Source: Egbenema sp. FJBBOT/2019 (GTDB taxonomy: Bacteria; Cyanobacteriota; Cyanobacteriia; Elainellales; Elainellaceae). Taken from it: a stretch of 48,000 bases of DNA. The notes beneath the pieces were generated by a model that was given only the letters and a program-made list of their open reading frames with translations, was not told the origin of the DNA and did no database searches. The translations under genes and the position numbers were made by a program. The stretch covers positions 7,450,594-7,498,593 of the forward strand of contig NZ_CP182236.1 of the NCBI RefSeq assembly GCF_048077055.1, read 5' to 3'. Numbering within the stretch: the stretch's first letter is position 1; the number at the start of each line of letters is the position of its first letter. Positions 13,708-31,977 of the stretch are shown in pieces.

Positions 13708-16700
13708 ATGCACCCTGCCTCAGCGATCGAAATTGAGTTTGATCAAGTAATTCCCATCGTGAACAATATCCTGCAAGGGAAATGCGATCGCCCCCTCAGT
13801 GATCTGGAGGTTGAACTATTGAGGGGAGCCTGGGATAATTTGACCTATGATGAAATCGCTGCTCGATCGGGCTATTCGCTGAACTATCTCCAGCGGGATA
13901 TGGGTCCAAAGTTTTGGAAGCTCCTGGGTCGTAGCGTGGGGCAAAAACTTAGCAAAGCGAACGCCAGAGTTATTTTGACTCAGATTGCACAATCCCAGCT
14001 ACAACCCCCAGAGCCTCCGCCTCCCCTGCCAGATGCCACCCCTCCAGAGACGCAAGCAAAACTCCTCACAGTTCAGACCGCCCGCCCCGATCCGCCGCCT
14101 CTCCCCTCGCCTCCCGCCATTCCCTCCACCTGCGACTGGGGCGAAGCGATCGATACGTCTATCTTTTATGGTCGAGAAACTGAGTTACAGACCTTGCATC
14201 AATGGATCATTGATGACCATTGTCGAATGATTGCGGTACTGGGCATAGGAGGTATCGGGAAAAGTTCCCTGGCCGCCAAAATCGCTACCATCCTGCAAGA
14301 TCAGTTTGAGTTCATCATCTGGCGATCGCTGCGGAACGCCCCACCGTTGGAAACCTTGCTCAGGGAGCTTGTCCCCTTTGTTTCCCGTCAGCAAGATACC
14401 CAAGCCCAACCCGATCGACTGCTGCACTGGCTGCGTACCCATCGCTGTCTGGTAATTCTCGATAACCTGGAAACCGTTATGCAGGTTGGCGATCGGGCCG
14501 GATACTATCAATCTGATTATGAGAACTATGGCGAATTGCTGCGAATCGTTGGAGAAACCACCCATCAAAGTTGCGTCTTGCTGACTAGCCGCGAAAAGCC
14601 ATCGGAAATTGCTGTGCTGGAAGGCCCAGATACCTGGGTGCGATCGCTGACCTTAGGCGGTTCTCCAGAAGCCTCGCTGGCTCTAATTGAGTCAAAAGGT
14701 TTATCCGGAGAAGCAGCAGAAAAACTACAACTTTGTGAGTCCTATAGTTATAATCCACTCGCTCTGAAGATTGTCGCGTCTTTCATTGACAGTCTGTTTG
14801 ATGGAGAAATTGCTACATTTCGGCAAGAAAACACCTTGCTGGTCAATGGTCTGCGGCGTTTGCTGGAACAACAGTTTGAGCGATTATCCTACCTGGAACA
14901 AACGATCATGTACTGGTTGGCGATCAACCGTGAATGGATCACGATCGCTGAACTGATGGAAGATATAGTTCCAACACCTTCTAGAGTTAACTTGCTAGAG
15001 ACATTGGAATCACTAACGTGGCGATCGTTGGTGGAAAAGCGAGCGGGTGCATATACTCAGCAACCCGTTGTCATGGAATATATTTTGGAATGCTTGATTG
15101 AGCGAATTGCAACCGAGTTAATCACAAACAAGCTTTCCCTGTTTCACCGCTACGCGCTCGTTAAAACATCTGTTCTGGAATATATTCGTGATAGTCAAAT
15201 TCGCTTAATTTTACAACCGATCGCCAATCGATTGCAGTCTACCTTGCCTGCTCGATCAGCAATAGAACAGCATCTCAGAACAGTCCTACAGCAACTACGG
15301 GCTACGACCCATCCAACTTCACGCTACGGTGTGGGCAATTTACTAAACCTGCTGATTCATTACCAAGTTGATTTGGCTGACTATGATCTGTCTCATCAAC
15401 AGATTTGGCATGCTCAGTTGGAGAAAACGACCCTCCAACGCACCAATTTTTCCTATGCTGAATTGCACCAAACAACCTTTATCCAACCCCTGAGCTATAT
15501 TCTGGAACTGGCCTTCAGTCCGGATGGTCAATTGCTGAGTACCGTTGATAGTACAGGACACATTTATCTGTGGCGGGTTCAGGATGGGCAACCGATCGTC
15601 AATCGTTTGGGACATGCCAGCCGGATTCATTCAGTTTGCTTTAGTCCGGATGGTGCGATCCTTGCTACAGGCAGTGCCGATCGTACCGTTAGACTCTGGG
15701 ATGTCAAAACAGGCACAATGCTGAAGCAACTTCATGGGCACACAAATGAAGTTCGATCTGTCGCCATTAGCCCCAACGGGCAATTCTTAGCGAGTGCCAG
15801 TGCCGACACCACCATTCAAATCTGGGATTTGGCGAGTGGGACATTGCAAAAAACGCTCACTGGGCATGAAGATGAGCTTTGGTCATTAGCATTTAGTCCC
15901 AATGGGCAATACCTGGCGAGCAGTGGGGCGAGACCAAACATCCGGATCTGGGATGGGGTAACGGGAACTCTGGTGCGGACGCTGGCAGGAGATGCGCCGA
16001 TTCATTGGTCGGTGTCCTTTAGTCCCGATGGACAAATCCTGGCGACGGGCAGTAACGATCACATGGTGCGCTTGTGGCAGGTGGCAACGGGGCAGCTTTT
16101 ACGAACCTTAGACGGCCATACGAGCCATGTCATTACAACTTGCTTTAGTCCGGATAGATTGTACCTGGCAAGTGGTAGCCTGGATTGTTCGATTCGGATC
16201 TGGGATGTCCGAACCGGTGCGCTGCTCAAAACGTTTCAGGGACATACCAATGGGATCTGGTCGATCGCTTTTAACCCAGACGGTTCCCTGCTGGCCAGTG
16301 GTGGGCAAGATTACTGTGTGAAATTGTGGGATATCAAGCTGGGGCAGACTCGTAAAACGCTGCGAGGTTACAGCAATAGTGTGCGATCGGTTCGTTTCAG
16401 TCCAGATGGGCAGACGATCGCAGCGGCTGGGTATGATCCTAAGATCAGAATTTGGGATGTCGCCCTTGAGCAAATCACTCAGTCCTTTTACCCGGAACCA
16501 GGCGGAGTCTTTTCAGTGGAATTCAGCCCAGATGATACCCTGTTGGCCAGCGGTGGCTCTGCTAACACCATCAGCCTTTGGAATTTAAAGACTGGGCAAC
16601 TGTTACGAAGATTAGTGGGACATCAAGGCTGGATTTGGTTATTGTCCTTTAGCCCCGATGGACACTACATTGCCAGCGGTAGCACAGACAGCACCCTGAA

Positions 16701-17394
16701 ATTATGGCAAGTGCAAAATGGTCAACTGGTACACACTCTGGAAGGTCACGATGGGTGGATTTGGTCGCTAGCCTTCAGCCCCGATGGCACACTATTAGCC
16801 AGTGGTGGATTGGATAGCACGATCCGGATCTGGGAGGTGAAGACGGGAGAACCGATCGCCGTTTATCGCGGGCATGAGGGTTGGGTAACGACCCTATCCT
16901 TTGTGAAAAATAGCTGCATCCTGGCCAGTGGGGGCAGTGATGGGTTGATTAAACTTTGGGATCTGCAAACTCCTGCATCGCCCACCTTGCAATCCTCCTG
17001 GCAGGCGCATCAAAGTACGGTGTGGTCGCTGGCTAGCTTTTCAGATCAAAAACGGATCGTCAGCGGCAGCGCGGACGGAACCATCAAACTTTGGGCAATC
17101 GAAACCCAAACCTTACAAATGACATTGGCAGAACATACCAATGAAGTATGGACAATTGCTCTCAGTTCAGACGAGACCTGCCTAGTCAGCGGTAGTGTTG
17201 ATGAACAGGTGAAATTATGGGATATCGAAACAGGAAAGTGTTTGAAAACCTTAACAGGCGATCGTCCTTACGAAGGGATGAATATTACAGGCGTAACGGG
17301 CATTACTGATGCGCAAAAAGTGACGCTCAAGGCTTTGGGCGCGATCATTCAAGATTCAGAGGATTTAAGCCTTGTTAATGTTGGTTTGCCTTAG
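13708..17394 (+). CDS. STAND protein 1: N-terminal LuxR/sigma-r4-like HTH, NB-ARC-type P-loop NTPase, pentapeptide-like segment, ~14 WD40 repeats
   Basis: 1228 aa. HTH-like [44 protein letters not shown], Walker [14 protein letters not shown], Walker [15 protein letters not shown] GxPLAL-like YNPLALKIV, then repeated GH..x..SVAFSPDG..LASGS.D.T(I/V)(K/R)(L/I)WD units. Tail [28 protein letters not shown]. Confidence 0.85.
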
Positions 17395-17533
17395 CCGCTC
17401 CAGCATCTGTTTTTTCACTTTTCTACTCTATATGGTTGAGCCGCCCTTGCTTGAGAAAAGTGTGGAATTCGGCTGAAAGACGATGAAATGGGTTATATAT
17501 TTCTGATAAACACGTAGCGCTTCCTGGTTCCCT

Positions 17534-20500
17534 ATGCACCCTGCCTCAGCGATCGAAATTGAATTTGATCAAGTGATTCCGATTGTGAACAATATCCTGC
17601 AAACGGAATGCGATCGCCCCCTCAGTGATCTGGAGGTGGAACTATTGAGGGGAGCCTGGGAGAACCTGACCTACGATGAAATTGCTGCTCGATCGGGCTA
17701 TTCGCTGAACTATCTCCAGCGGGACATGGGGCCAAAGTTCTGGAAGCTTTTAAGTAGCAGTTTGAAGCGCAAGATTAACAAAACCAATGCCAGAGCTATC
17801 CTGACCCAGTTGGTTCAATTCCAGCTTCAGTCCCAGCCTTCCCAATCCCAACCTAAATCCTTAGAGCCACTCCCCCTTGCGGCTTCAGCCACTGCTCCAC
17901 CCCAGCAATCAGCGGCTGCGATTCTCACCGCCCACTCTCCCCTGCTCGCGCCTCCGCCTCCCCCTCCCTGCCCTAACCCCTCTACCCTCGACTGGGGTGA
18001 AGCGATCGATGCATCTATCTTCTACGGTCGAGAAACGGAACTGAACACCCTCAAGCAGTGGATGATCGATGATCGCTGTCGCATGGTTGCCTTACTGGGG
18101 ATGGGGGGCATTGGTAAAAGTTCCCTGGCGGCTAAAATTGCCACCATGCTGCAAGATCAGTTTGAGTTCATCATCTGGCGATCGCTCCGCAATGCACCTC
18201 CCCTGGAAACCTTACTCAGTGATCTGGTTCCGTTTGTCTCGCGGCAGCAGGACACTCAAACTAAACCCGATCGACTGCTGCACTGGCTGCGTACCCACCG
18301 CTGTCTGGTGATTCTCGATAACCTGGAAACGATTATGCAGGCAGGCGATCGGGCAGGGTACTACCAGCCTGACTATGAGAACTATGGTGAATTGCTACGA
18401 GTGCTGGGAGAGTCTGCCCATCAAAGTTGTGTACTGTTGACCAGTCGTGAAAAACCTGCGGAAGTAGCCTTTATGGAGGAAACCGATGGCTGGGTGCGAT
18501 CTGAAACGCTCAGTGGTTCCCTGGAGGCGGCCCTGGCCATCCTGAACGTCAAACAGTTAGTTGGAAGCGATCAAGAGAAACGACAGCTCTGTGAATTTTA
18601 TGGTTGCAGTCCCCTCGCCTTAAAAGTAGTTGCCTCCTCCATTCACAGTTTATTCGATGGCAGTATTTCTGAATTTTTGCAGGAAGAAACCCTGATTTTC
18701 AATGGTATTCGTCGCCTGTTAGAGCAGCAGTTTGAGCGATTGTCCCATTTAGAAAAGAGCATTATGTACTGGCTGGCGATTAACCGTGAATGGGTATCGT
18801 TCGCTGAATTATACCAGGATATTACTCCGGCTGTGTCTCGATCGAGTTTGTTAGAAGCTTTAGAATCTCTAACCTGGCGTAGCTTGATTGAAAAACAATC
18901 AGGGCAGTACACGCAGCAACCTGCGGTCATGGAATATGTGACTGAACAACTGGTGCATCAAGTCGTGATTGAGCTAGTGGCTCAAAAACTGGCTTTGTTC
19001 GATCGGTACGCGCTGATCAAAACTACCGTCAGTGCCTATGTTCGAGCGGCCCAATTCCGGCTAATTCTACAGAAAATTGGCGATCGATTACGATTTGCCT
19101 TTGCCAGCCCTGAAGCCCTCCAACAGCATATCCAAGTTTTACTGCAACAGCTTCGTGCCAATTCCGATATTGCTTCTAACTATAGTGGCGGTAATTTATT
19201 GAACCTGTGCATTTACTTAAACCTGGATATCACGGATTACGACTTCTCTGAACTCACGATTCGCCATGCCTATTTGCAAAATACATCGCTGCATCGGGTT
19301 AACTTTGCCGAGGCTGAATTTGATCAACCCGCTTTTACCCAGACCTTCAGCAGTGTTTTAGCGGTAGCCTTCAGTCCTGATGGAACACTGTTAGCCACGT
19401 CTGATACGAATACAGAAGTGCGGCTCTGGCGATTGTCTGATATGCAGTTACTACATCAATTGCAGGGGCATGGAGATTGGGTTCGTGCCCTGGACTTTGC
19501 TCCCACCGGACGTTACCTGGCCAGCGGCAGTGATGAGTCCAGTATTCGGATCTGGGATGTCCAGACGGGGGATTGCCTGCAAGTTTTAACCGAACATAGT
19601 GGCCATGTTTGCGCCCTGGACTTTAGCCCCGATGGCCAGACCTTGGTCAGCAGCAGTGATGATGGCACCTTGAAAGTATGGCAGGTTACAAGCGGAAAAT
19701 GCTTACAAACCCTAGCGGGTCACAGCCAGCGCATCTGGTCTGTGGCGTTTCATCCCGACGGAACCCATCTGGTCAGCGGCAGCCAGGATCAGACTGTGAA
19801 ACTTTGGGATTTAACAACTCAGCAATGCATCAATACCCTGCACGGTCACACCGGATGGATTACTGCCGTTGCTTTTAGTCCAGAGGGCCGTTATGTAGCC
19901 AGCGGCAGCCATGACACGACGGTAAAACTCTGGGATGCTGTCACCGGAGATTGCCTGACTACGCTGTATGGGCATCAAAATTGGGTCTGGTCTGTAGCTT
20001 TTAGTCCTGAAGGGACTTTGCTCGCCAGTGCAGGGGAAGATCAAACGGTGCGGTTGTGGAATATCAAAACAGGACGGTGCCTCAAAATTTTGGAGGGACA
20101 TACCCATCGCATCTGGTCGGTGGCTTTTAGTCCGGTGAAACCCATGCTAGCCAGTGGCAGTGATGATCAGACGGTGCGGCTATGGGAAATTGGGATGCTT
20201 CAGAATTTTGGTTCACCCAGAGAGTCTGGAGCAGAATTGTTAGCCCTTTCTGGACACTGTACTAAAGTGCTGCAAGGACACACTCACCAGATCTGGTCGA
20301 TCGCCTTTAGCCCTGATGGTAGAACGATCGCCGGAAGTGGGGATGAACAGGTGATTCGATTATGGCAGGTGGATACGGGCAGATGCTACAACATATTGAC
20401 AGGACATACGCATCGAGTTAGCTCTGTCGCCTTTAGTTCCGACGGTTGCACGATCGCCAGTGGTGGAGAAGATCAAATGGTTTGCCTATGGAATGCGGGC

Positions 20501-21277
20501 ACGGGGCAATTGCTACGGAAATTGCGGGGGCATTCAAACCAGGTTTGGTGCGTTGTATTTAATCCGGTAGCTCCGATATTGGCCAGCTCCAGTGAAGATC
20601 AGACCATCAAACTATGGGATGTGAAAACGGGAAAATGTTTGAAAACGCTGTATGGGCATCATGACTGGATCTGGTTCCTTGCTTTTAGTCCCAATGGTCA
20701 AATTCTGGCTAGCAGTAGCTATGATCAAACAGTTAAGCTCTGGGATGTGCAGACCGGGGAATGTTTGAAAACGCTGGAAGGTCATTCCGGTTCAGTCATG
20801 TGTGTTGTGTTCAGCCCCGATGGACGATTTCTTGCCAGTTGTAGTTGCTACGATCAGGAAATTCGACTGTGGGAGGTTGCTACAGGACAGTGTTTGCAGG
20901 TGATACGGGCATCCGCTCCCATGTCTCTGGTACTTCTGCCCAATGCATCGTCTCAAACTGGACTAAGTTTGGTGAGTGGCAGTGGTCAATTGGAAACTGG
21001 CATTCAGTTCTGGGATTTGGATGATGGCGAATGCTACAAAACCTTGCAAGGACACGATCGCTGGATTATGGAAATTCAACTGAGTCCCAGTGGCGAAGTT
21101 TTGGCCAGTGGCAGCGGCGATGAAACGATTCGATTATGGGATGTGAAATCAGGGCAGTGCTTACGCATTCTCAGACCCAATCGTCCCTATGAAGGCATAA
21201 ATATCACTGGAGTCAGGGGATTAACGCAGGCACAAAAAGAAGCCCTGAAGGACTTAGGCGCGATCGAGCAGGCATGA
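17534..21277 (+). CDS. STAND protein 2: HTH + NB-ARC-type NTPase + ~14 WD40 repeats (tandem paralogue)
   Basis: 1247 aa. The first 23 aa are identical to protein 1. [31 protein letters not shown], a divergent WD40 array with two blade insertions, and tail NRPYEGINITGVRGLTQAQKEALKDLGA. Confidence 0.85.
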   Translation: MHPASAIEIEFDQVIPIVNNILQTECDRPLSDLEVELLRGAWENLTYDEIAARSGYSLNYLQRDMGPKFWKLLSSSLKRKINKTNARAILTQLVQFQLQSQPSQSQPKSLEPLPLAASATAPPQQSAAAILTAHSPLLAPPPPPPCPNPSTLDWGEAIDASIFYGRETELNTLKQWMIDDRCRMVALLGMGGIGKSSLAAKIATMLQDQFEFIIWRSLRNAPPLETLLSDLVPFVSRQQDTQTKPDRLLHWLRTHRCLVILDNLETIMQAGDRAGYYQPDYENYGELLRVLGESAHQSCVLLTSREKPAEVAFMEETDGWVRSETLSGSLEAALAILNVKQLVGSDQEKRQLCEFYGCSPLALKVVASSIHSLFDGSISEFLQEETLIFNGIRRLLEQQFERLSHLEKSIMYWLAINREWVSFAELYQDITPAVSRSSLLEALESLTWRSLIEKQSGQYTQQPAVMEYVTEQLVHQVVIELVAQKLALFDRYALIKTTVSAYVRAAQFRLILQKIGDRLRFAFASPEALQQHIQVLLQQLRANSDIASNYSGGNLLNLCIYLNLDITDYDFSELTIRHAYLQNTSLHRVNFAEAEFDQPAFTQTFSSVLAVAFSPDGTLLATSDTNTEVRLWRLSDMQLLHQLQGHGDWVRALDFAPTGRYLASGSDESSIRIWDVQTGDCLQVLTEHSGHVCALDFSPDGQTLVSSSDDGTLKVWQVTSGKCLQTLAGHSQRIWSVAFHPDGTHLVSGSQDQTVKLWDLTTQQCINTLHGHTGWITAVAFSPEGRYVASGSHDTTVKLWDAVTGDCLTTLYGHQNWVWSVAFSPEGTLLASAGEDQTVRLWNIKTGRCLKILEGHTHRIWSVAFSPVKPMLASGSDDQTVRLWEIGMLQNFGSPRESGAELLALSGHCTKVLQGHTHQIWSIAFSPDGRTIAGSGDEQVIRLWQVDTGRCYNILTGHTHRVSSVAFSSDGCTIASGGEDQMVCLWNAGTGQLLRKLRGHSNQVWCVVFNPVAPILASSSEDQTIKLWDVKTGKCLKTLYGHHDWIWFLAFSPNGQILASSSYDQTVKLWDVQTGECLKTLEGHSGSVMCVVFSPDGRFLASCSCYDQEIRLWEVATGQCLQVIRASAPMSLVLLPNASSQTGLSLVSGSGQLETGIQFWDLDDGECYKTLQGHDRWIMEIQLSPSGEVLASGSGDETIRLWDVKSGQCLRILRPNRPYEGINITGVRGLTQAQKEALKDLGAIEQA

Positions 21278-21339
21278 ACCATTCACACACCGTTTACAAC
21301 TACGGTATAACGTGTGTATCTTCGTAACATAGTTGATTG

Positions 21340-22314
21340 TTATTGGTACATATTGGACGCTGCCATCTTTTTTCTGCAAGCTGCCTCATATAAGACCTTT
21401 GCAATTTGAATATCTTGGATCGCAACACCTGTTAAATCTGCTACTGTAATTTGCTCATCCAATGTTCGCCCCGGTGCTTTGCCTGAAATGACATCCCCTA
21501 ATTCTGTGAGCGATTCTGGCATAATGAGTTTCTGTGCGATCGCATGGGCGATGTCTCCCCGTTCCATACATTGCGAAACGCTGTCTGCAACCACACAATC
21601 AGCTTTTGCAAAAATTATTGAATCTAATTCTTGTTTGTGCGGTGTATCGGCTCCAACCGCAGTGATGTGAGTACCAGGCTGAACGTAGTCGGCGTAAACT
21701 AGAGGCGTTGTAGAGGGCGTTGTTGTCACAATCAGATTGCACGTTGATGTTAGCTCTTGAATCGTTTGGGCAACAGCAATATTAAACTTTCCCGTGATCG
21801 TTTGTTGAAACTGCTTTGCCTTGTCAAGATTCCGTCCCCAGACGATCGCTTCACGACAATCAATTACTTTAGCCAGATATTGCAGTTGTAATCTGGCTTG
21901 AATTCCTGTTCCAACAATGCCAATCCGATGGATATGTTTAGGAGCCAGATATTTCGCTGCGATCGCCCCTGCTACGGCAGTGCGTACATCCGTTAGATAT
22001 CCTTCATCAAGCAGGGTTGCCAGTGGTGTTCCAGTCTTCTGATCAAAAAGAAGCATGAGACCATTGCTAGAGGGTAAATTTAGGGTTGGATTCTCATAAA
22101 ACCCTGATGCAATTTTGATGACATAGTAGCGATCGTTTAGCAAGTATCCGTACTTGATATGTACATCCCCAGGAGGGTTTTGAAAGAGCAGTTCTCCGAC
22201 GGGAGGGATAACAGCTTTGCCCGCAGAGTAACTGACAAAACCTGCTTCTATTGCAGAGAACAAATCTACTGAGGATAGTAATTCTTGAATTTGAGCGAGT
22301 TCAATGATTTTCAC
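21340..22314 (-). CDS. Ornithine cyclodeaminase / mu-crystallin family NAD-dependent enzyme
   Basis: 324 aa. Rossmann motif IGIVGTGIQARLQL and family-typical YLTDVRTAAAGAIAAKYLA and ITAVGADTPHKQELD. Confidence 0.75.
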   Translation of the reverse strand: MKIIELAQIQELLSSVDLFSAIEAGFVSYSAGKAVIPPVGELLFQNPPGDVHIKYGYLLNDRYYVIKIASGFYENPTLNLPSSNGLMLLFDQKTGTPLATLLDEGYLTDVRTAVAGAIAAKYLAPKHIHRIGIVGTGIQARLQLQYLAKVIDCREAIVWGRNLDKAKQFQQTITGKFNIAVAQTIQELTSTCNLIVTTTPSTTPLVYADYVQPGTHITAVGADTPHKQELDSIIFAKADCVVADSVSQCMERGDIAHAIAQKLIMPESLTELGDVISGKAPGRTLDEQITVADLTGVAIQDIQIAKVLYEAACRKKMAASNMYQ

Positions 22315-22325
22315 AGTAGTCCCTC

Positions 22326-23297
22326 CTATAAAACTTGCTTCAACGCTTCCAGGCTGATGTTGGCTCCACAGACCACAATCACCACCGTTTTGCCCTGTAG
22401 CTGTTCCTTCTGCTGTAGGAAAGCCGCGATCGCCACTCCGGCTGCCCCTTCCACCAGCAAATGATGGGTTTCGATCATCAATCGTATGGCGGACTGAATC
22501 TCAGCTTCTGTCACCAGCACAAAGTCATCTACCAGCGTGCGACAAAGATCAAAGGTGATGGCTTCGGGTTCAACTCCTCCGGCTGTCCCGTCTGATAGGG
22601 TTGGCAATGATTCCATCGTGAGAATTTGACCTGCTTTGATTGACTCAGCCATCACTGGAGAATTGACCGGAGAGCAGCCAATAATCTCAATGTCCGTGAA
22701 GATCGGCTTGAGATATCCCGCCACGCCACTGATTAACCCGCCACCCCCAACCGAGGCAAATACGGTGTCAATTTGGTCTAGCTGTTGTGCCATCTCGACC
22801 GCGATCGTCCCTTGCCCTGCAATCACTTTAGGGTCGTTGTAGGGGGAGATGTAGACGAGTCCATGTTCATTGGCATACTTCCGGGCATAGGCTTCTGTCA
22901 CACCGCAATCTGTGCCATAAAACTGTATCTCTGCGCCCCATTGTTGAATCAGGTTGACTTTGGCGGAAGATGCATTTTCAGGGACAAAAATGATTCCAGG
23001 TATATCCAGCGTCTTCAACCCAAAGGCAACTGCTGCACCATGATTGCCAGAGGAAGCTGCGATCACTCCCTGTTCCTGCTGTTCCGCTGTCAGAGAGAGG
23101 AGTTTGTTCATTGCTCCGCGAACTTTGAAGGAACCTGTATGTTGCAGGTTTTCTAATTTTAGAAATACACGACAATGACCCAGTTGGCTCAACAATGGTG
23201 AATAATCCAGGGGTGTTTCTCGGATGTAAGGGCGAATTTGCTGTTCTGCCTGTAATACCTCAGTGCGAATATTTAACCCAATTAAAGGTGAGATCAT
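22326..23297 (-). CDS. PLP-dependent threonine/serine dehydratase-like enzyme (fold type II)
   Basis: LENLQHTGSFKVRGA (PLP lysine motif), SSGNHGAAVAF, and glycine loop SVGGGGLISG. Start placed at ATG 23297 (AGGAG 8 nt upstream). It ends 11 nt before the OCD start, so the two likely form an operon. Confidence 0.75.
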   Translation of the reverse strand: MISPLIGLNIRTEVLQAEQQIRPYIRETPLDYSPLLSQLGHCRVFLKLENLQHTGSFKVRGAMNKLLSLTAEQQEQGVIAASSGNHGAAVAFGLKTLDIPGIIFVPENASSAKVNLIQQWGAEIQFYGTDCGVTEAYARKYANEHGLVYISPYNDPKVIAGQGTIAVEMAQQLDQIDTVFASVGGGGLISGVAGYLKPIFTDIEIIGCSPVNSPVMAESIKAGQILTMESLPTLSDGTAGGVEPEAITFDLCRTLVDDFVLVTEAEIQSAIRLMIETHHLLVEGAAGVAIAAFLQQKEQLQGKTVVIVVCGANISLEALKQVL

Positions 23298-23399
23298 GTC
23301 AGTTACTCCTGATTTGACATCAATGTGAATCTGATGTATCAATTCTCTTGTGTATCTTGTTTGATCGCTACCCGCAATCATTTTCCCTTGCTGATAGCG

Positions 23400-23507
23400 C
23401 TAGTAGACCTCGGCAGCAATACGCCCACCTTTCGTAGTGCAGGCTTCCAGCCTGCGCGGGCAAGATGCCCGCTCTACGGTTGCTCAATTCACGCTCGCTT
23501 CTACTAG
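23400..23507. repeat. 108-bp MITE-like element, copy 1 (TIR CTAGTAGA...TCTACTAG)
   Basis: By eye it differs at 3 positions from the reverse complement of 32080..32187. It has an internal GCGGGCAAGATGCCCGC hairpin. The terminal CTAG supplies the stop codon of the GNAT gene. Confidence 0.8.
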
Positions 23508-23643
23508 TGATGAGATAAGCGAGCCATGATTTGGATGTCGGCATACTGCCCAGCACGAAAGGCATAGTGTTGCATCACCCCTTCGGTAACGAAGCCAAAC
23601 TTGGTATACAGGGCGATCGCCGCTTCGTTATCGGCATAGACTA

Positions 23644-24862
23644 GTAGATTGTCAGCCTTGATTTGAAGGGTAAATGGATTGATAATTTGAGCTATCTCCA
23701 ATCAGTCAAACCATTATGGCGCGAAAAAAATACATCGTTTCTCTAACTGCTGAAGAACGAAAAGAGTTGGAGCAACTCACTACAACTGGCAAAGTTGCTG
23801 CTTACAAAATGAACCATGCACGGATTTTGCTCAAAGCCGACACCAACCAAGAAGATGGAGGATGGACGGATCAAGCAATTAGCCAAGCACTCGACATCAG
23901 TGTAGCGACGATTGAACGGGTGCGGCAACGCTTTGTTGAAACAGGTCTAGAGAGTGCCTTGAGTCGGCAAGTGCAGCAACAACGCAAACCGCGCCGCCTC
24001 GATGGATCCCAAGAAGCACATCTGATTGCGATGACCTGTAGTGAGCCTCCCGAAGGACAAGCCCGTTGGAGTCTGCGCTTGTTAGCTGAGCGAATGGTGG
24101 AATTAGAGGTGGTCGAAAGCATCTGCCATGAAACCGTTCGACAAACGCTGAAAAAAACGACCTCAAGCCCTGGTTGAAAGAATGCTGGGTGATTCCTCCC
24201 GAGTCCAATGCGACGTTTGTCTACTACATGGAAGATATCTTAAGTGTCTACACCCGCTCTTACGACTCACGCTATCCCGTAGTTTGTTTTGACGAAACCA
24301 GCAAACAGTTAGTCAAGGAAACCCAAGTCCCTTTACCGATTGAACCGGGTCAACCGCCGCGCTATGACTACGAGTATGAACGAAACGGGGTCAACAATCT
24401 GTTCATGTTCGTTGAGCCCTTAGCGGGTTGGAGACATGTCCAAGTCACAGACCGGCGCACCAAGCACGATTATGCCCAGCAAATGAAATACTTGGTCGAC
24501 GAGCGTTATCCGGATGCGGAGTGGGTCACGGTTGTCCAAGACCAACTCAACACTCATGACCCTTCGGCATTGTATGCCACCTTTGAACCCCAAGAAGCCA
24601 AGCGGATCCTCGATAAGTTGGAATTTCATTACACCCCGGTTCACGGCAGTTGGCTCAATATGGCTGAAACTGAACTCAGTGTTTTAGCCCGCCAATGTCT
24701 AGATCGCCGCATTCCAGATCAACCGTCATTGCAACAAGAAACACTAGCGTGGGAGCAGCGCAGGAATGCTCAACTGCGAACCATCGATTGGCAATTTACC
24801 ACGGAAGATGCACGGGTTAAACTCAAACGACTTTACCCTTCATTTCAACCTTGACAGACCAC
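23644..24862 (+). mobile_element. IS630/Tc1-mariner-family insertion sequence (~1.2 kb) with TA target duplication
   Basis: Imperfect TIRs GTAGATTGTCAGCCTTGATTTGAAGGG (left) and GTGGTCTGTCAAGGTTGAAATGAAGGG (right, reverse complement). Flanking TA at 23642-23643 and 24863-24864. Confidence 0.85.
23716..24854 (+). CDS. IS630-family DDE transposase, two ORFs joined by a probable -1 frameshift on A7
   Basis: ORF1 is the HTH part and ORF2 the DDE part (FDETS, VVQDQLNTH, SWLNMAETE). A -1 slip on AAAAAAA at 24151-24157 yields LKKNDLKPWLKECWVIPP, the typical IS630 junction sequence. Confidence 0.8.
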
Positions 24863-25394
24863 TAGTAACTCCAACCGATGAACATTTAGCCACTGCTCTG
24901 TCAAATCGATCGCTGCTTTGACTAGTGCGGAACCAATGCCTTTACCCTGATGATTTGCATGGACAACAACCGGACTAATGCGAGCCACATGATGCACACG
25001 AGGATGCGGATTAACAGAAAATCCCAACATTCCCACAATGTTCTGGTCGCTGGTTGCCACCAGGGTGTACTGTCCTTCTGCTGGCTGGATAAAGCGTTGA
25101 TCGATCTGGGCTACCGTTGCATAGGGCAACTCACTTGTCCAGTAGACTGTTTTGGAATGGGTTAATAGTTCATGCAGATAATGAATATCATCGGGTTCTA
25201 CATAGCGGATGGCGATCGGTGTTTCTTTGGGTGCAGTAACAGTATCGTAAGACGGTACGTGATGGATTGCAGAAGATGAGATTACTTGCTGTGAATTGGG
25301 TTTAGCATGCGTGATCATTACGGCTCCTATATTTGTGATGAGAAAACAAAATTAATCGATCGCAAATAGATAATTCATGTTCAAAAAGCGGGTA

Positions 25395-25490
25395 ATCGAT
25401 CCCCCTAAATCCCCCTTAAAAAAGGGGACTTTGAACGGCTCGGCTCCCTCCTTTTTAAGGAGGGTTGGGGAGGAGCAAAGGGGTTTTGAA
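25395..25490. repeat. Dispersed cyanobacterial hairpin repeat cluster (CCCCCTAAATCCCCC / CTCCCTCC...GGAGGG)
   Basis: Stems CCCCCTTAAAAAAGGGG and CTCCCTCCTTTTTAAGGAGGG. The 78-aa ORF over it (…KKEGAEPFKVPFFKGDLGGS) looks like the translation of this kind of repeat rather than a gene. Confidence 0.5.
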
Positions 25491-25596
25491 CACACTTTAG
25501 GGAGGATCGAAACATGGTTTACGATCGACTGAAAATAGATTGATCTCTTGGGAACGATCGCCCCGTTGATTGGAACGATCGCCCCCATTGGTTGAA

Positions 25597-26895
25597 TTAA
25601 CCAGGAACGAACTGGAAATCCGTTGAGAGACTCACGTTAGTTGTGTCTTGCACCACTCCAACGAGCGCGTTTGTGGGCTTGTAATAAATTCCTACGTCAG
25701 AAATTCCCACAGGCCCGACCATCTCCACTAGGGCTAACCGATAGTCGCTCGCTTGTCCTTGCAGGGAAATCTTATCGCCTTCGGAACGTTTGAAATCCCT
25801 GATGGTCGCAAAATGATTATCTCGGTAGAAGTCTTTAAGGTAGAAGATATCCGCTCCTGCCCCACCTTCCATGATGTCGAAGCCGCCACCAACACCAATG
25901 ATGTGGTCATCGCCGCCGCCGCCGCGCATCTGGTCGTTGCCAGCCCCTCCAAGTAGGGTGTCGTTGAATCCGTTACCAACCAGAACATCACGACCACCTC
26001 CTCCATCTAAGTAGCTTGCCCTGCTTGGATTTGCCACGATCAAGTTACCGAAACCGTTGCCTACGGCTCCCTTCGCTAAACCCATTAACTCAACTCTTTC
26101 AATATGTTCCAGGTTGCTGGGCATGTTATAGACCTCATCTGTAGGTAGCCCAGATACAAGCTCAAAAATCAGTTTGTCGCTCCCTTCATTGGCTTTTTCA
26201 ACAATGGTTGGGCCGTTGTTGCTGTAAACGTAGTACGTATCATCGCCGATTCCGCCATACAGCTTATCGCCTGCGCCACCGTGTAGGGAGTCACTTCCAC
26301 TGTCACCGTAAAGGCTAGACCCCGTTCCGCCTGTGATGCCACGAATCGTACCCAACAACACGTCGTCATTATCTCCGCCATAGACGTTATTTTTTCCGCC
26401 TGTATGTGCGTAGATTGTATCGTTCCCACCTAAACCGTAGAGGTCATTATCCCATTGGTTGCCCTTGATTGTGTTGCTAAGGTTATTCCCAATACCGACG
26501 CGACCTACCCCTTTCACGGCATCGTCCATCAGTTCCATCCTTTCAACAAAAGCAGGTAGAACATATCTTTGAGCGTGAGAGAAAACTGTATCGTTTCCTT
26601 CTCCATCTCGTTCGGTGATTCGATCGCGCTCATTGTCTACGAAATAGCTATCATCACCGCGTCCCCCGACCATGAGATCTTCACCTGTACCGCCATCCAT
26701 GCGATCATTACCGTCTAGACCGACCAAGGTATCATTACCAATTCCTCCAGTCAGCGTATCGCTTTTGGCTCCACCTGTCAGGCTGTCGTTGCCTTCCCTT
26801 CCGTCAATTTCCCAGCTTTCCCACCAGAGTCCCCATCCAGATTTGGTTGCGGTAATGGTATCGTTGCCGGTGGTTCCGGTTCTTCTTTCAGTCAT
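25597..26895 (-). CDS. RTX (hemolysin-type calcium-binding repeat) protein, paralogue 2
   Basis: 432 aa, colinear with 585..1889: MTERRTGTTGNDTITA..., GGxGxD nonapeptides, and a conserved tail DKISLQGQASDYRL...YYKPTNALVGVV...TDFQFVPG. It has the same AAGGAGAAACTTCA ATG initiation region. Confidence 0.85.
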   Translation of the reverse strand: MTERRTGTTGNDTITATKSGWGLWWESWEIDGREGNDSLTGGAKSDTLTGGIGNDTLVGLDGNDRMDGGTGEDLMVGGRGDDSYFVDNERDRITERDGEGNDTVFSHAQRYVLPAFVERMELMDDAVKGVGRVGIGNNLSNTIKGNQWDNDLYGLGGNDTIYAHTGGKNNVYGGDNDDVLLGTIRGITGGTGSSLYGDSGSDSLHGGAGDKLYGGIGDDTYYVYSNNGPTIVEKANEGSDKLIFELVSGLPTDEVYNMPSNLEHIERVELMGLAKGAVGNGFGNLIVANPSRASYLDGGGGRDVLVGNGFNDTLLGGAGNDQMRGGGGDDHIIGVGGGFDIMEGGAGADIFYLKDFYRDNHFATIRDFKRSEGDKISLQGQASDYRLALVEMVGPVGISDVGIYYKPTNALVGVVQDTTNVSLSTDFQFVPG

Positions 26896-26993
26896 TGAAG
26901 TTTCTCCTTATGAGTTGTTGAGTTCGTATAAAGCGCATTCAGATAAGTGACCACATCCATTTGTTTGGTGCAGTCTTTTTTGAGAGATGAACT

Positions 26994-27250
26994 TGTCCTT
27001 TTACAGTTCTCGCCTCTATTCCAATAGCAGATTAGAGTTGCACACTACTCAGGATTTCGGACAAAACAGCATATAATGCAGAGTCAGGCAGATACCTGAG
27101 GATGGAAGATGCTTTTCTGTCCTGCGTGGTGCCAGTCATCTCTATGTCTTCCAAGATAAGGGGATGTTTTGTAGTTGTCGTTACAGAAAATGTCCACTCT
27201 TCAATGGTTTAAAAGGTCCACTTTTGTCCGGTCTACCTCATTAACTGTCC
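26994..27250. promoter_or_regulatory. TGTCC-box array in the divergent RTX-2 / STAND-3 intergenic region
   Basis: TGTCC at 26994, 27118, 27191, 27225 and 27246; GGTCC at 27215; GGACA (reverse complement) at 27059. The four proximal boxes lie 40-100 nt upstream of the STAND-3 ATG. Confidence 0.45.
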
Positions 27251-27289
27251 ATTTCACTTCGCTACCCCCCTGGAGAACAGTCGCCACCT

Positions 27290-30200
27290 ATGGAGTTTGA
27301 ACAAGCCTTTGCGATCGTCAATGCTGCGATGTATCACTGCTTCGGGCGATACCTCAAAGATATTGAGGTGACGATCTTACGGGGCAGTTGGCATCACCTG
27401 ACCTATGAGCAAATTGCCGAGTCGAGCCAGTATTCCATCAGCTACATTCGGCGGCATGTAGGGGCGAAGTTTTGGAAGCTGCTGAGTCAGGCATTGGGTG
27501 AACCCGTTAGCAAAACAAACTTTCGCAGTGCTTTGGAGCGACGGTGGCAAGAGGAGCAGCAGACCCAGCGAGAGCAGCAAAACCAGCCAAAACCAGAAGA
27601 ACATACAGGACTTGAAGAAGGCAGTACTGCTCCTATCGCTGCCTTCACGCATCTCTCTACTGTGGATTGGGGTGAAGCGATCGATGTCACCATTTTCTAT
27701 GGTCGAGAAGCAGAACTGGATACCCTGCATCAGTGGGTGATAGACGATCGCTGCCGGATGATTGCATTGCTGGGCATGGGAGGCATTGGCAAGAGTTCTT
27801 TGGCTGCCAAAATTGCACACCTTTTGCAAGATCAGTTTGAGTTTGTCATCTGGCGATCGCTGCGGAATGCCCCACCCCTCGAAACTCTACTCAGAGATGT
27901 GGTTCCATTTCTTTCCAGACAGCAAGATGCCCAGGTAACGCCCCAACGGTTTTTGCACTGGTTGCGAACGCATCGTTGTTTGGTGATTCTGGATAATGCG
28001 GAAACAATGATGCAGGCGGGCGATCGAGCCGGGCATTACCAACCGGACTATGAAAATTATGGCGAATTGCTGCGTTTAATTGGGGAAGCTGCCCATCAAA
28101 GCTGTGTGATTTTAACCAGCCGCGAAAAGCCTGCTGAAGTTGCGGTGCTGGAAGAGGTGGAAGGATATGTGCGATCGCTTCAATTGGGCGGCTCGAAAGC
28201 AGCTTCCCTTGCCCTGCTAGAGGCAAAAGGCTTACAGGGCACAGAGGCAGAAAAATTGCGGCTGTGTGAACAGTACAGCTACAGCCCTCTCGCTTTAAAA
28301 ATTGTGGCTTCTTCCATTAACAACCTCTTTGATGGCGCGATTGCCGACTTCCTCGAACAAGATACGCTCATCTTTAATGGGTTGCGTCACCTGCTAGAAC
28401 AACAGTTTGAACGGTTATCCTACCTCGAACAAACGATTATGTACTGGTTGGCAATTAACCGTGAGTGGATTTCCGTTGATGAGTTGTTAGAAGACATCAT
28501 TCCTACAGTATCCCGTGCTAGCGTTTTAGAGTCTTTGGAATCCTTATCCTGGCGATCGTTGATTGAAAGAAAATCCGGAAAATATACTCAACAGCCCGTC
28601 ATAATGGAATATGTAACCGAACAATTAATTGAACAGATTATAATTGAACTGATCACAAAAAATCTAGATTTGTTTGCTAAATTATCACTCATTAAAACAA
28701 CCGTCAAAACCTATATTCAAGATGGCCAGAAACGGCTTATTCTAAGAGCGATCGCTGAGAAACTTTGTGCTACTATTCGATCGACAGACGGACTCGAGCA
28801 GCACCTTAGAACTATTATTCAATCCCTACGAAATAATCCTACTCCATTTCCTGATTATGCCAGCGGAAATCTCATCAACCTCTACCGCTGCTTGCGATTA
28901 GATCTAACAGGCTATAATTTTTCTCACCTCACCATTCAACACGCTTGCTTGCAGGGAATTGATTTTCATCACGTTAATTTGCAAAATTCCAGCGTCTTCA
29001 AATCAACCTTTTCTCAAGTAGTGGGTGCCTTATATTCTATTGCCTTCAGTCCAGATGGAACTTTGTTGTTGGCAGGGGATATGCATGGAGCAATTAACGT
29101 TTGGCAGATTGCGAATGACCAATTACTTTTAAACTGGCAGGCTCATGCAGGATGTGTAATGAGAGTAGTCTGGCATCCCAATGGGCAAATTTTTGCCAGC
29201 GGAGGGGGTGATCCTGTTATTCGGATTTGGGATAGCCAAACCAAGCAATGCCTTCAAATATTAACGGGACATCGAGAATTTGTATTTTCACTGGCGTGGA
29301 GTCCTGATGGGCAATGGTTTGCTAGCAGTAGCGCCGATCGCACCATTAAACTCTGGAATTCGCAAACGGGTGAATGCTTGAAAACACTCGAAGGACACAG
29401 CAGCACAGTTTACTTTGTCGCTTGGAATTTGGATGGTACTCAATTAATGAGTTCCAGCAGTGACGGTACCTCTAGGCTCTGGAGCTTAGAAAGTGGAGAA
29501 TGCCTTCGGGTGTTTCAGGTTGAGGGATGCGGGTCACGCGCGATCGCCTGGAGTCCAAGTGATCCGCGACTAGTGAGCATTAGTCATGGACAGCTTTTGC
29601 GAATTTGGAATATTCAAACCGGGGAATGTTTAATTACCTTTGAGGGACATGCAAGAGAGATTTTTTCAGTCGCCTGGAGTCCCGACGGAAAAACGTTAGC
29701 AAGCTGTGGCGATGATTACACCATTAAACTCTGGAACGTTAAAACGGGTCAATGTTTAAAGACACTGCTGGGACACCAAAATTCTGTTCTATCTGTCACT
29801 TGGAACGCTGACAGTACCCTCTTAGCATCAGGAAGTCATGATCAAACTGTGAAGCTTTGGGATGTGGAGAGTGGGCAGTGTTCTCGCACGTTGCAGGGCT
29901 ACAGTAATTGGATTCGCTCTATATCCTGGAGTCCTGATGGAAAATCTCTAGTTAGTGGTGGTGCCGATAAACTCGTCAGGATTTGGGATGCAGAAACTGG
30001 AAAATGCCTGAAAAGTCTATCAGGTCATGATTCCTGGATTCTCTCCGTGCAATGGAGTCCAGACGGAAAAACGATCGCTAGCAGCAGTGCGGATAACACA
30101 GCAAAACTTTGGCAGGTTGAAACGGGACAACACCTCCACACATTGCAGGGGCATCGTCACTGGGTCTATTCCATTGCCTGGAGTCCCGATGGGAAAACTC

Positions 30201-30895
30201 TTGCCACTGGCAGTAGCTCTAACGGTCGCTCTTTGAGGTTGTGGAATGCCCAAACAGGTGAGTGTCTGAACGTTCTATACGGGCACAACAGTTGGATCTG
30301 GTGGGTCGTCTGGAGTCCGGATGGCAAGCAGATCGCGACAGGTGGTAATGACCTATTGGTCAAAATTTGGGACAGAGAAACCGGAGAATGTCTGCAAACG
30401 CTCCATGATGCTCATCTTTCAGGTCGAGCGATCGCCTGGAGTCCCGATGGCTCAACCCTAGCCACCAGCAGCGATGAACGAACTATTTTGCTCTGGGATA
30501 TCCAGACAGGAAGGTGCTTGCAACAGTTGGCAGATCATGCAGGATTGGTCTGGGCACTCAGTTGGAGTCCGGATGGACAAGTCCTGGCCAGTGCCGATGA
30601 GCAGGGAACGATTAAACTCTGGAACTGCACAACAGGGAAATGCTTCAGAAATCTACTTGGACATGAACGTCTAGTTTGGTGTGTAGCTTGGAGTCCTGAT
30701 GGTCAAAGACTTGCGAGTAGTAGCAGAGATGGGACGATCAGAGTCTGGGATATTCAAGCTGAAGAGTGCCTGCATCTACTGAGAACCGATCGCCCCTACG
30801 AAGGCATGAACATTACTGGAGTGAAAGGGCTAACAGATGCTCAAAAGAATACGCTGAAAGCATTAGGGGCGATCGATCATTCAACTTTATACTGA
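27290..30895 (+). CDS. STAND protein 3: divergent HTH + NB-ARC-type NTPase + ~14 WD40 repeats
   Basis: 1201 aa. HTH-like [75 protein letters not shown], a WD40 array of type (V/I)AWSPDG, and tail [28 protein letters not shown]. Confidence 0.85.
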   Translation: MEFEQAFAIVNAAMYHCFGRYLKDIEVTILRGSWHHLTYEQIAESSQYSISYIRRHVGAKFWKLLSQALGEPVSKTNFRSALERRWQEEQQTQREQQNQPKPEEHTGLEEGSTAPIAAFTHLSTVDWGEAIDVTIFYGREAELDTLHQWVIDDRCRMIALLGMGGIGKSSLAAKIAHLLQDQFEFVIWRSLRNAPPLETLLRDVVPFLSRQQDAQVTPQRFLHWLRTHRCLVILDNAETMMQAGDRAGHYQPDYENYGELLRLIGEAAHQSCVILTSREKPAEVAVLEEVEGYVRSLQLGGSKAASLALLEAKGLQGTEAEKLRLCEQYSYSPLALKIVASSINNLFDGAIADFLEQDTLIFNGLRHLLEQQFERLSYLEQTIMYWLAINREWISVDELLEDIIPTVSRASVLESLESLSWRSLIERKSGKYTQQPVIMEYVTEQLIEQIIIELITKNLDLFAKLSLIKTTVKTYIQDGQKRLILRAIAEKLCATIRSTDGLEQHLRTIIQSLRNNPTPFPDYASGNLINLYRCLRLDLTGYNFSHLTIQHACLQGIDFHHVNLQNSSVFKSTFSQVVGALYSIAFSPDGTLLLAGDMHGAINVWQIANDQLLLNWQAHAGCVMRVVWHPNGQIFASGGGDPVIRIWDSQTKQCLQILTGHREFVFSLAWSPDGQWFASSSADRTIKLWNSQTGECLKTLEGHSSTVYFVAWNLDGTQLMSSSSDGTSRLWSLESGECLRVFQVEGCGSRAIAWSPSDPRLVSISHGQLLRIWNIQTGECLITFEGHAREIFSVAWSPDGKTLASCGDDYTIKLWNVKTGQCLKTLLGHQNSVLSVTWNADSTLLASGSHDQTVKLWDVESGQCSRTLQGYSNWIRSISWSPDGKSLVSGGADKLVRIWDAETGKCLKSLSGHDSWILSVQWSPDGKTIASSSADNTAKLWQVETGQHLHTLQGHRHWVYSIAWSPDGKTLATGSSSNGRSLRLWNAQTGECLNVLYGHNSWIWWVVWSPDGKQIATGGNDLLVKIWDRETGECLQTLHDAHLSGRAIAWSPDGSTLATSSDERTILLWDIQTGRCLQQLADHAGLVWALSWSPDGQVLASADEQGTIKLWNCTTGKCFRNLLGHERLVWCVAWSPDGQRLASSSRDGTIRVWDIQAEECLHLLRTDRPYEGMNITGVKGLTDAQKNTLKALGAIDHSTLY

Positions 30896-31899: not shown

Positions 31900-31977
31900 T
31901 GCACTAACCCGCCTTCAGCTGAAGAAAAAATCTTTCTACTAGCCTACGCTCTCTAACCTGGCTTGTGGGGATTAAAA

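Follow-up and report, generated by a model that had tools for sequence, protein, structure and literature searches.

Three HTH-NB-ARC-WD40 paralogues of Egbenema bharatensis as candidate ligand-gated STAND transcription factors

Architecture of the three paralogues

Egbenema bharatensis is a filamentous cyanobacterium with a genome of 7.5 Mb. The window analysed here, to which all counts given for the window refer, is a stretch of 48,000 nt of this genome and contains three large paralogous genes on the + strand: gene A (13708-17394, 1228 amino acids (aa), WP_416671202.1), gene B (17534-21277, 1247 aa), which is a tandem paralogue of A with identical architecture, and gene C (27290-30895, 1201 aa). 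The NCBI name of the three products is merely 'WD40 domain-containing protein'. Each is composed of an N-terminal helix-turn-helix (HTH) domain assigned to HTH_VMAP-M9, a linker, an NB-ARC nucleoside triphosphatase (NTPase), about 14 WD40 repeats and a conserved C-terminal tail. The original prediction, made on the DNA alone, had described three open reading frames (ORFs) sharing one architecture and had proposed that their N-terminal domain couples sensing to transcription; the three frames, their positions and their common architecture were recovered.

The HTH domain of A comprises about 90 residues (aa 9-98, 13732-14001, +) with helices at 11-26, 32-42, 47-54, 58-77 (the recognition helix) and 86-98; it corresponds to aa 9-98 in B and aa 1-90 in C. 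The residue pattern proposed for this domain was reproduced by the three-way alignment of A, B and C, where the invariant positions are L30, D32, E34, V35, L38, R39, G40, W42, L45, T46, Y47, I50, A51, Y56, S57, Y60, R63, G66 and K68-L73. The low-complexity linker, also anticipated, is rich in P and Q in the three proteins. The NTPase with its helical and winged-helix region spans aa 140-560 in A (14125-15387, +; Walker A at 179, LVILDN at 248, TSR at 290 and PLAL at 348), aa 150-570 in B and aa 123-542 in C. Its NB-ARC-like character was supported by PF00931, with 37.6 (A), 45.4 (B) and 41.3 (C) bits against a cut-off of 23.5, and the nSTAND1 and NACHT models were likewise above threshold in the Pfam scan of the three proteins. 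The expected motifs are found at equivalent positions and in the same order, GxGGIGKS, LVILDN, V[LI]LTSR and [YC][NS]PLAL, the last one as YNPLAL, CSPLAL or YSPLAL. The Walker B motif is LVILDN (hhhhDN; A aa 248-253, B aa 258-263, C aa 231-236), the usual form being hhhhDD/DE, and a conserved Glu is present two residues past it (LDNxE) in the three proteins. With such a motif hydrolysis may be slow, or another residue may be catalytic.

The WD40 region covers aa 596-1171 in A (15493-17220, +), aa 606-1202 in B and aa 579-1153 in C. The repeat hidden Markov model identified 14 repeats in A, 14 in C and 13 plus one degenerate blade in B, in agreement with the 14 or so predicted. The C-terminal half of C, as modelled by AlphaFold (predicted local distance difference test, pLDDT, 76; about 56 strands), has as its best PDB match 2ymu, a cyanobacterial 14-repeat double propeller with 41% identity; Aip1 ('two seven-bladed propellers') comes next and then Apaf-1, so the two seven-bladed propellers that had been predicted are borne out. 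The conserved C-terminal tail of 29 aa (A 17260-17346; B aa 1216-1244, 21179-21265; C aa 1167-1195, 30788-30874; all +) reads [DN]RPYEG[MI]NITGVxG[LI]TxAQKxxLKxLGA; as expected it is present in A, B and C, as well as in about 38 homologues from other genera, and in the 880 kb of DNA examined it was seen only in family genes. The pentapeptide-like stretch of the original prediction is weak: a resemblance is there (Pentapeptide E = 0.03-0.18, Pentapeptide_4 E = 0.0016-0.2), with all values below the Pfam cut-off. In this stretch and in the tail the pLDDT is <50 and the model is uninformative for both. A, B and C are thus STAND NTPases of the NB-ARC clade that carry a double WD40 propeller.

Conservation among the paralogues is uneven. 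The NTPase was said to be highly conserved, and it is, with 68-70% aa identity, whereas the WD40 region has 37-42% and the tail, at 69-81%, is above the WD40 blades. Synonymous sites are saturated in these comparisons (proportion of synonymous differences, pS, about 0.7-0.8). Because of this saturation, recent gene conversion is ruled out for the NTPase, whose conservation reflects purifying selection, and the ratio of non-synonymous to synonymous rates (dN/dS) is not computable for the WD40 region, where diversification had been anticipated and the alignments point to weaker constraint only. The exception is the comparison of A with B over their initial ~95 codons (13708-13992 and 17534-17818), where pS is 0.38. 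The proximal promoters of these two genes (13625-13707 and 17456-17533) are 84% identical and the remainder of the genes has a pS of about 0.7. This similarity suggests that the 5-prime ends are younger or converted, by gene conversion over part of the genes, or else that a promoter-plus-HTH cassette is under common constraint.

Identity and fold of the N-terminal domain

The N-terminal domain had been predicted to be an HTH, and three lines of evidence agree with it: a Pfam family, a LuxR-like AlphaFold model and an alignment register with LuxR-type HTHs. The family is PF26355 (HTH_VMAP-M9), precomputed on 14/14 homologues of the domain and also on P0164, which represents protein C in the clustering at 90% identity; the assignment of A and B is made through these homologues. 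Kaur et al. 2020 (PMC7159879) were the first to delineate this domain, as one of the 29 variable alpha-helical 'middle regions' that they distinguished in vWA-MoxR-associated proteins. The HTH assignment is therefore correct but not new, being already in Pfam.

The AlphaFold model of the domain, built on a 16-sequence alignment, has five helices, a pLDDT of 89.9 and a predicted TM-score (pTM) of 0.79. Its top Foldseek matches in the PDB are almost all LuxR/GerE/NarL/FixJ DNA-binding domains, among them DosR-DNA 1zlk (probability 0.96, TM 0.60, root-mean-square deviation (rmsd) 2.9), GerE, NarL-DNA 1je8, SdiA, EL222 and FixJ; over ~64 residues the probability reaches 0.96, the target TM 0.60-0.67 and the rmsd 2.5-3.0 A. 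The domain profile aligned by hhalign with 74% probability and E = 2.9e-5 to a LuxR-type set of seven sequences, of which that of NarL was verified against 1je8. In the resulting register, domain residues 29-65 lie on NarL 155-191, so that N59 corresponds to S185, Q62 to K188 and R63 to V189; a one-residue extension of this ungapped register places G66 on K192. The base-specific contacts of NarL are made by K188, V189 and K192 (PMC10853779). Charge is unevenly distributed: the N-terminal half of the domain is acidic, whereas the recognition half is basic, at +2.4 on average over the family and, counted by hand, about +7 in A; the net charge of the whole domain is near zero. On the modelled structure, the N-terminal domain is a four-to-five-helix HTH of the LuxR/GerE/sigma-region-4 fold.

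The family across cyanobacteria

An exhaustive profile search identified 2652 cluster representatives carrying the domain, nearly always at the N-terminus and usually with Walker A 60-100 aa further on. Genomic-locus figures, here and below, refer to the best 80 of 297 confirmed loci. All of these (80/80) are cyanobacterial and about 38 of them encode the full HTH-NB-ARC-WD40-tail architecture. Its members occur chiefly in filamentous or colonial cyanobacteria, tandem pairs recur in other genomes (L038, L051, L074 and L008/L032), and no relative was found on viral contigs.

Partner domains were scanned in 61 mid-length members, the most frequent being NB-ARC (45), DUF1822 (13) and AAA_35 (9). 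Other architectures in this set are HTH-NACHT, REC-HTH-AAA_35, HTH-wHTH-BTAD-AAA_16, HTH-TRADD-N-DUF1822 and HTH-alpha/beta-hydrolase. The REC-HTH-AAA_35 arrangement resembles the layout of NarL-type response regulators, and HTH-wHTH-BTAD-AAA_16 (P0077) is SARP/AfsR-like. In P0145 and L075 the HTH is followed by TRADD-N and DUF1822; unusual fusions are also encountered in P0067, P0077, P0058, L059 and L062, and an HTH-NB-ARC-DUF1822 protein in Prochloron. Tandem copies of HTH_VMAP-M9 were identified in P0015 (541 aa, 6 copies), P0025 (391 aa, 4 copies) and P0082 (264 aa, 3 copies), the first two showing no further Pfam domain on scanning. Such a covalent HTH array may have as its target the same tandem boxes as an oligomerised STAND protein. 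Short homologues of 66-165 aa were considered as stand-alone HTH proteins and this was rejected: several, such as P0006 and P0009, extend as far as NTPase sequence and come from gene calls that are truncated or fragmentary.

Family genes that are split, truncated or reduced to relics, yet still preceded by their box modules, are common among the other cyanobacterial genomes, as in L077 (5992-7032 and 7075-9606), L085, L007 (10330-10807), L027 (from 5478) and L029 (4869-5115). These relics suggest frequent birth and death of paralogues.

Upstream direct repeats and the recognition helix

The regions upstream of 89 family genes and of 220 control genes were compared. The word AAAGTATG was identified upstream of 30/89 family genes and 16/220 controls (p = 2e-8) as part of a conserved module, TGTCTTTACAG-rAAAGTATGGAG-ttgAGTATGk-AAAGTATGGTTTrAT, whose compact consensus is GTCTTTACAGGAAAGTATGGAGTTGAGTATGGAAAGTATGGTTTAAT. 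At least three direct repeats make up the module, and the distance between the outer ones is about 21-22 bp; in most genera its end lies about 35-45 bp before the ATG and its last box abuts a -10-like element, TTTAAT or TTTGAT. Compact modules are co-oriented with the family gene in 38/38 cases. The module is conserved in Nostoc, Calothrix, Planktothrix, Microcoleus, Leptolyngbya and Chamaesiphon, where HTH identity is only about 50%, and the sequence 3' of the boxes is not conserved. A role of the boxes as a -35 mimic for a sigma-r4-like domain was rejected: counted by hand on the consensus, they stand about 9 and 21 nt from the -10-like element, against the usual 17. The boxes match no known RNA in an Rfam scan of the window.

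The repeat motif follows the class of the recognition helix and not the downstream architecture. Genes with NYLQRD helices, A and B included, have AAAGTATGG boxes: AGTATGG precedes 26 of the 34 genes of this class against 3/275 in the background (p = 1e-27), and at least two copies are present in 25/34, compared with 0/55 for the rest of the family and 0/218 for the controls. Genes with SYLTRD helices have TCAGGTA-type boxes, that is, TAATCTCAG[G/A]TA[G/A]AAT-type repeats at about 10-bp spacing. Here AATCTCAG was found in 8/21 genes against 3/288, a motif obtained from unbiased k-mer enrichment where an earlier hand-written motif had scored only 3/21; this class spans AAA_35, short NB-ARC and NB-ARC-WD40 proteins. 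The third class, NYLMRD, is preceded by GGTTATGSTG in 10/11 genes against 0/78. A single genome may contain several helix classes, each with its own motif, as in CCP2 (L001 compared with L038 and L051).

The association was also recovered from the DNA side. A metagenome scan seeded with the DNA module alone gave nine matches, four of them complete, and each of the four complete modules had an NYLQRD-class gene 47-50 bp downstream. When genes were grouped by DNA motif alone, residue 62 was the best of about 89 domain columns, with a normalised mutual information (MI) of 0.93: it is Q in 25/25 genes of the first motif group, T or K in 18/20 of the second and M in 10/10 of the third, the remainder of the helix being invariant. 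Double-box matches in other genomes lie directly upstream of a co-oriented family gene in 27/31 cases, and most of the remaining ones precede family-gene relics, as second modules in other genomes do.

Control regions in the window

The window contains 17 occurrences of AAGTATGG, where 1.2 would be expected. Upstream of A, a bidirectional control region (13362-13550, +) is placed between A and a peptidyl-prolyl isomerase (PPIase) gene (12510-13340, -), 22 bp from the latter. It contains an inverted box at 13436-13455 (CCCACACTT..., reverse complement AAGTGTGGG), the sequence GTCTTTACAG and direct AAAGTATGG boxes at 13483-13490 and 13539-13546, with GAGTATG and AAAGTAAGG in between. The predicted proximal promoter of A (13627-13707, +) comprises the variant box AAGTGTGG at 13627-13634 and a promoter-like CTGAGA-16-TATATT at 13672-13699. 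The one predicted for B (17456-17533, +) comprises AAGTGTGG at 17458-17465 and CTGAAA-17-TATATT at 17473-17501; because this region is homologous to that of A, with 84% identity and homologous promoter-like sites, B probably has its own promoter. Upstream of C there is a degenerate module (27177-27222, +; GTCGTTACAGAAAATGTCCAC...ATGGTTTAAAAGGTCCAC) that includes two GTCCAC boxes at a distance of 25 bp; it is placed in the intergenic region between C and the divergent RTX gene 25597-26895. The recognition helix of C is of a different type, YSISYIRRHVGAKFWKLL (SYIRRH).

The distal region of A is one of four near-identical copies of 130-200 bp that, together with a short one, each lie upstream of a minus-strand gene. 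The copy at 7152-7346 (+), 76% identical to that of A, is 56 bp from the start codon of an ABC exporter with cNMP-binding and C39-peptidase domains (4487-7096, -); the copy at 9616-9790 (+) is 53 bp from the start codon of a second PPIase gene (8802-9563, -); and the copy at 2137-2270 (+) is about 250 bp upstream of an RTX-repeat gene (585-1889, -). The short copy (31977-32006, +) has two boxes, AAGTATGG, 14 nt, AAGTATGG and then TTTTAG, 78 bp upstream of an AurF-like gene (30955-31899, -). No family-gene relics were identified by tblastn downstream of the extra window copies, unlike in other genomes. The same bidirectional region with an inverted box, GGTTAACCTCCACACTT, is found between RTX and family genes in L001, L025 and L026, and both C and its orthologue (L090) are divergent from an RTX gene. 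The recurrence of the region at the ABC-C39 exporter, the two PPIases and the RTX gene suggests a local secretion regulon.

Proposed function and alternative explanations

The class-specific repeats, the metagenome search made with DNA only and the equivalence of residue 62 with NarL Lys188 together suggest, at the level of sequence, that sensing is coupled to transcription in these proteins. The reading favoured here, with a probability of roughly 0.6, takes the three proteins to be STAND transcription factors gated by a ligand; by analogy, they are most likely autoregulated and MalT/AfsR-like. Oligomerisation, ligand and regulation are modelled on MalT, AfsR and Apaf-1. A ligand bound to the WD40 propellers would release autoinhibition, allowing nucleotide exchange in the NB-ARC domain and nucleotide-dependent oligomerisation. 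The oligomer would gather several HTHs, which would bind the upstream boxes as a repeat array in a cooperative way, as MalT does on MalT boxes. For A and B the box would be AAGTRTGG, and C probably reads a different one. The outcome would be the control of the own gene and of the divergently transcribed neighbour. A and B may in addition be cluster-situated regulators of a type-I-secretion/RTX module, because the same control region is placed upstream of the exporter, the two PPIases and the RTX gene.

Several observations weigh against this reading. The Foldseek E-values of the HTH model are 0.2-1, insignificant by themselves, and a PDB sequence/profile search with the N-terminal domain gave no match. 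The Pfam models GerE and Sigma70_r4 are unmatched in A, B and C: the best Sigma70_r4 score is that of C only (E = 0.23), which at 11.5 bits falls short of the cut-off of 24.1, A has nothing, and the sole Pfam match in the domain of B is an unrelated and weak FAST_1 (E = 0.086). NCBIfam gave nothing significant for the domain. The null Pfam result is explained by the Pfam copy used, in which PF26355 is missing. As for the repeats, 9/34 NYLQRD genes have fewer than two boxes, no clear upstream motif is seen for the EYIKHD/AAA_35 class, many other columns of the domain also have a fairly high MI, and the helix classes are also clades; the same association could arise if the promoter and the 5-prime segment of the gene were co-inherited as a cassette whose boxes serve a different factor. 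C has a degenerate module only, and its single orthologue L090 is too close for conservation of the GTCCAC boxes to be judged. The extra control-region copies could be inert duplications, as there are paralogous gene pairs in this part of the window, and the occurrence of RTX homologues near family genes is a raw count, 13/80 loci, and no more than suggestive.

The three proteins might instead be NLR-like immune or conflict sensors, where the WD40 region recognises an invader or non-self protein and the HTH effector drives defence transcription or binds invader DNA. This differs from ligand-gated regulation in biological role more than in mechanism, and would suit the three paralogues in the window and the tandem pairs elsewhere, the WD40 region being far less conserved than the NTPase, the fusions of the same HTH to TRADD-N plus DUF1822, NACHT and alpha/beta-hydrolase, the first delineation of the domain in vWA-MoxR conflict systems, and the concentration of the family in filamentous and colonial cyanobacteria; ECF-like HTHs in the effector position of counter-invader systems are also described in the relevant passages of Kaur et al. 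2021. It is nevertheless considered unlikely. The PADLOC search, whose database dates from 2023 and so leaves newer defence systems outside its coverage, gave no Avs, bNACHT or other defence match, only a WD40-driven HEAT-ARM_XIII (A, B and C) and a weak IetA in B (E = 0.0024). Toxin-type effectors, vWA, MoxR and VMAP-C are absent from the window ORFs scanned, viral contigs have no relative, the boxes are in host promoters and beside secretion genes, and dN/dS cannot show diversifying selection.

An HTH-fold domain could also serve as a protein-protein adaptor or sensor that does not bind DNA, the boxes being read by another regulator and travelling with the 5-prime end of the gene. VMAP-M domains have indeed been read as variable sensing modules and not as outputs (Kaur et al. 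2020, PMC7159879), a point that counts against DNA binding as well; proteins made of tandem copies only, such as P0015 (6) and P0025 (4), are common for adaptors, although a tandem HTH array would equally suit tandem boxes; and both the near-zero net charge and the sub-threshold profile matches to DNA-binding HTH families fit an adaptor. What makes this explanation quite improbable is that the upstream motif is predicted best by residue 62, at the canonical base-reading position of an otherwise invariant helix, and that three helix classes pair with three repeat motifs whatever NTPase follows; moreover, no partner with the same domain fused to an effector was found among the 61 scanned members. 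Finally, the AAGTATGG module might be a dispersed repeat resembling a miniature inverted-repeat transposable element, or a dedicated alternative-sigma promoter, in either case unrelated to the HTH, the copies reflecting the spread of an element. The window with its four near-identical copies of 130-200 bp and a short one, three copies having no downstream family gene or relic, would fit, as would the -10-like TTTAAT or TTTGAT abutting the last box. This is very hard to reconcile with the position of the double-box matches elsewhere, 27/31 of which precede a family gene in the same orientation, with most others preceding relics, or with the conservation of the module across genera where HTH coding has diverged to about 50% identity and the different motifs carried by paralogue classes within one genome; terminal inverted repeats, target-site duplications and Rfam matches were not seen.

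Beyond the three proteins, a wider reading is proposed tentatively: a cyanobacteria-wide STAND family (about 2,650 clusters; NB-ARC-WD40, NACHT, AAA_35) would share one dedicated HTH with a readable recognition code and would use oligomerisation of the apoptosome kind as a transcriptional switch on repeat arrays in bidirectional promoters, with control of RTX/type-I secretion in the Egbenema/Leptolyngbya lineage. The code would reside in residue 62 together with residue 59, Q specifying AAGTATGG, T specifying TCAGGTA and M specifying GGTTATG, and the arrays would be direct repeats spaced by helical turns.

STAND/NLR proteins have mostly been studied as death or immunity switches. To our knowledge, the branch of STAND transcription factors (MalT, AfsR, LAL) has been described only with TPR-type sensors and other DNA-binding domains. 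If the proposed function holds, these would be the first proteins of Apaf-1 architecture (NB-ARC plus double WD40) with a predicted operator and regulon, in other words an Apaf-1 layout wired to a promoter and not to a caspase, in a large uncharacterised cyanobacterial family. The candidate operator of ~45 bp, the predicted specificity residue and the candidate targets (the ABC-C39 exporter, two PPIases and RTX proteins) are testable handles. The annotation 'WD40 domain-containing protein' is corrected as well, and the results also bear on the counting of r4-like fusions as sigma factors.

Other genes of the window

The region 585-13340 is a secretion-type neighbourhood comprising the RTX gene 585-1889, a SnoaL gene, an HlyD gene (3030-4466) and the ABC exporter 4487-7096 with its N-terminal cNMP-binding and C39 peptidase domains. 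Paralogue pairs are found in and around it: 7492-8487 and 9953-10933 (70% identical, PPC domain), the PPIases 8802-9563 and 12510-13340 (63%), and the RTX genes 585-1889 and 25597-26895 (59%). Just 3' of B, at 21340-23381 (-), an ornithine cyclodeaminase-like gene lies beside a pyridoxal phosphate-dependent (PALP) gene, a pair which we take to resemble SbnB/SbnA-type diaminopropionate synthesis and which would presumably suit a secondary-metabolite context. Between B and C, at 23716-24854 (+), there is an IS630-type transposase split into HTH_32 (23716-24177) and DDE_3 (24174-24854). The orthologous locus of C, L090, is without IS630 and keeps the order PALP, acetyltransferase, RTX.

The gene at 32534-34264 (-) lies in a GC-rich stretch (0.58) and its product, of extreme acidity, with a signal-peptide-like N-terminus and no Pfam match, contains about 19 copies of a 13-aa GGHGGDDxGDAAE repeat (39-bp DNA period). 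It is possibly a secreted cation-binding protein; the overlapping ORFs on both strands are repeat artefacts. The flanks 35333-40954 and 46629-47531 are unrelated and encode a hybrid response-regulator/histidine kinase, a multi-PAS HWE-type histidine kinase, RecQ helicase, shikimate kinase and a Uma2-family endonuclease.

Comparison with known systems

The architecture is less unprecedented than the original prediction implied: similar HTH-STAND fusions were already listed by Kaur et al. 2021 and in a sigma-factor survey of 2024. In their passages on TRADD-N proteins, Kaur, Iyer, Burroughs and Aravind (2021, PMC8195603) describe ECF-sigma-like HTHs in the effector position, together with DUF1822, and infer 'a transcriptional response'. 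That HTH is probably the same domain as the one studied here, the two being equated by architecture (P0145, L075); the same passages mention no NB-ARC-WD40, DNA target or helix-to-box co-variation. The consulted parts of the BMC Genomics survey (2024, PMC11119718) report cyanobacterial sigma-r4/r4_2-type domains fused to NB-ARC (9%), WD40 (8%) and AAA_35 (2.8%), as well as SigR, an r4_2-NB-ARC-TPR_MalT protein. These partner domains are the same as in the HTH_VMAP-M9 family. In those parts the fusions are classed from Pfam hits as sigma-factor variants, with no operator or mechanism, whereas A, B and C are below the Sigma70_r4 threshold. In the searchable literature the box sequence was encountered in primers only, with no description, and no description was found of the operator-like array, of the co-variation at residue 62 or of the link to RTX/secretion.

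The VMAP-M9 region belongs to the same Pfam family, PF26355, as the N-terminal domain of A, B and C. There it is a middle region before VMAP-C, a proposed sensor within the vWA-MoxR ternary system, whereas here it is N-terminal on a STAND NTPase, and neither the window ORFs scanned nor A, B and C contain vWA, MoxR or VMAP-C. With Apaf-1/Dark the three proteins share an NB-ARC domain followed by a double WD40 propeller. Apaf-1 carries a CARD death-fold and 7+8 blades, A, B and C an HTH and 14 repeats; the output of the former is caspase recruitment, that of the latter probably promoter binding. The C-terminal tail and the weak pentapeptide-like segment have no counterpart in Apaf-1.

MalT undergoes ligand- and ATP-dependent oligomerisation that leads to cooperative binding to arrays of short asymmetric promoter boxes. 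The likeness of A, B and C to MalT/LAL lies in the combination of a STAND switch, a LuxR-type HTH and a repeat-domain sensor. However, the HTH is C-terminal in MalT and N-terminal here; the NTPase is of NB-ARC/AP-ATPase type and not of the MalT clade; the sensor is a double WD40 and not SUPR/TPR-like; and the HTH is a separate, apparently cyanobacterial family, PF26355, unmatched by the GerE model. Neither TPR_MalT nor GerE was matched in the Pfam scans, and the three proteins are not members of this group. AfsR/SARP regulators have an N-terminal DNA-binding domain, an NB-ARC domain and C-terminal repeats, are cluster-situated and act on direct repeats near promoters, which resembles the layout and the proposed function of A, B and C. 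They are actinobacterial and combine an OmpR-type winged helix plus BTAD with TPR, whereas A, B and C are cyanobacterial and combine a LuxR/sigma-r4-like HTH with WD40. Trans_reg_C and BTAD are both absent from A, B and C and appear in the family only in the distant member P0077. A, B and C depart from these groups in domain order, in the NTPase clade, in the sensor repeats and in the HTH family; they belong to neither MalT/LAL nor AfsR/SARP, although by analogy they probably work like them.

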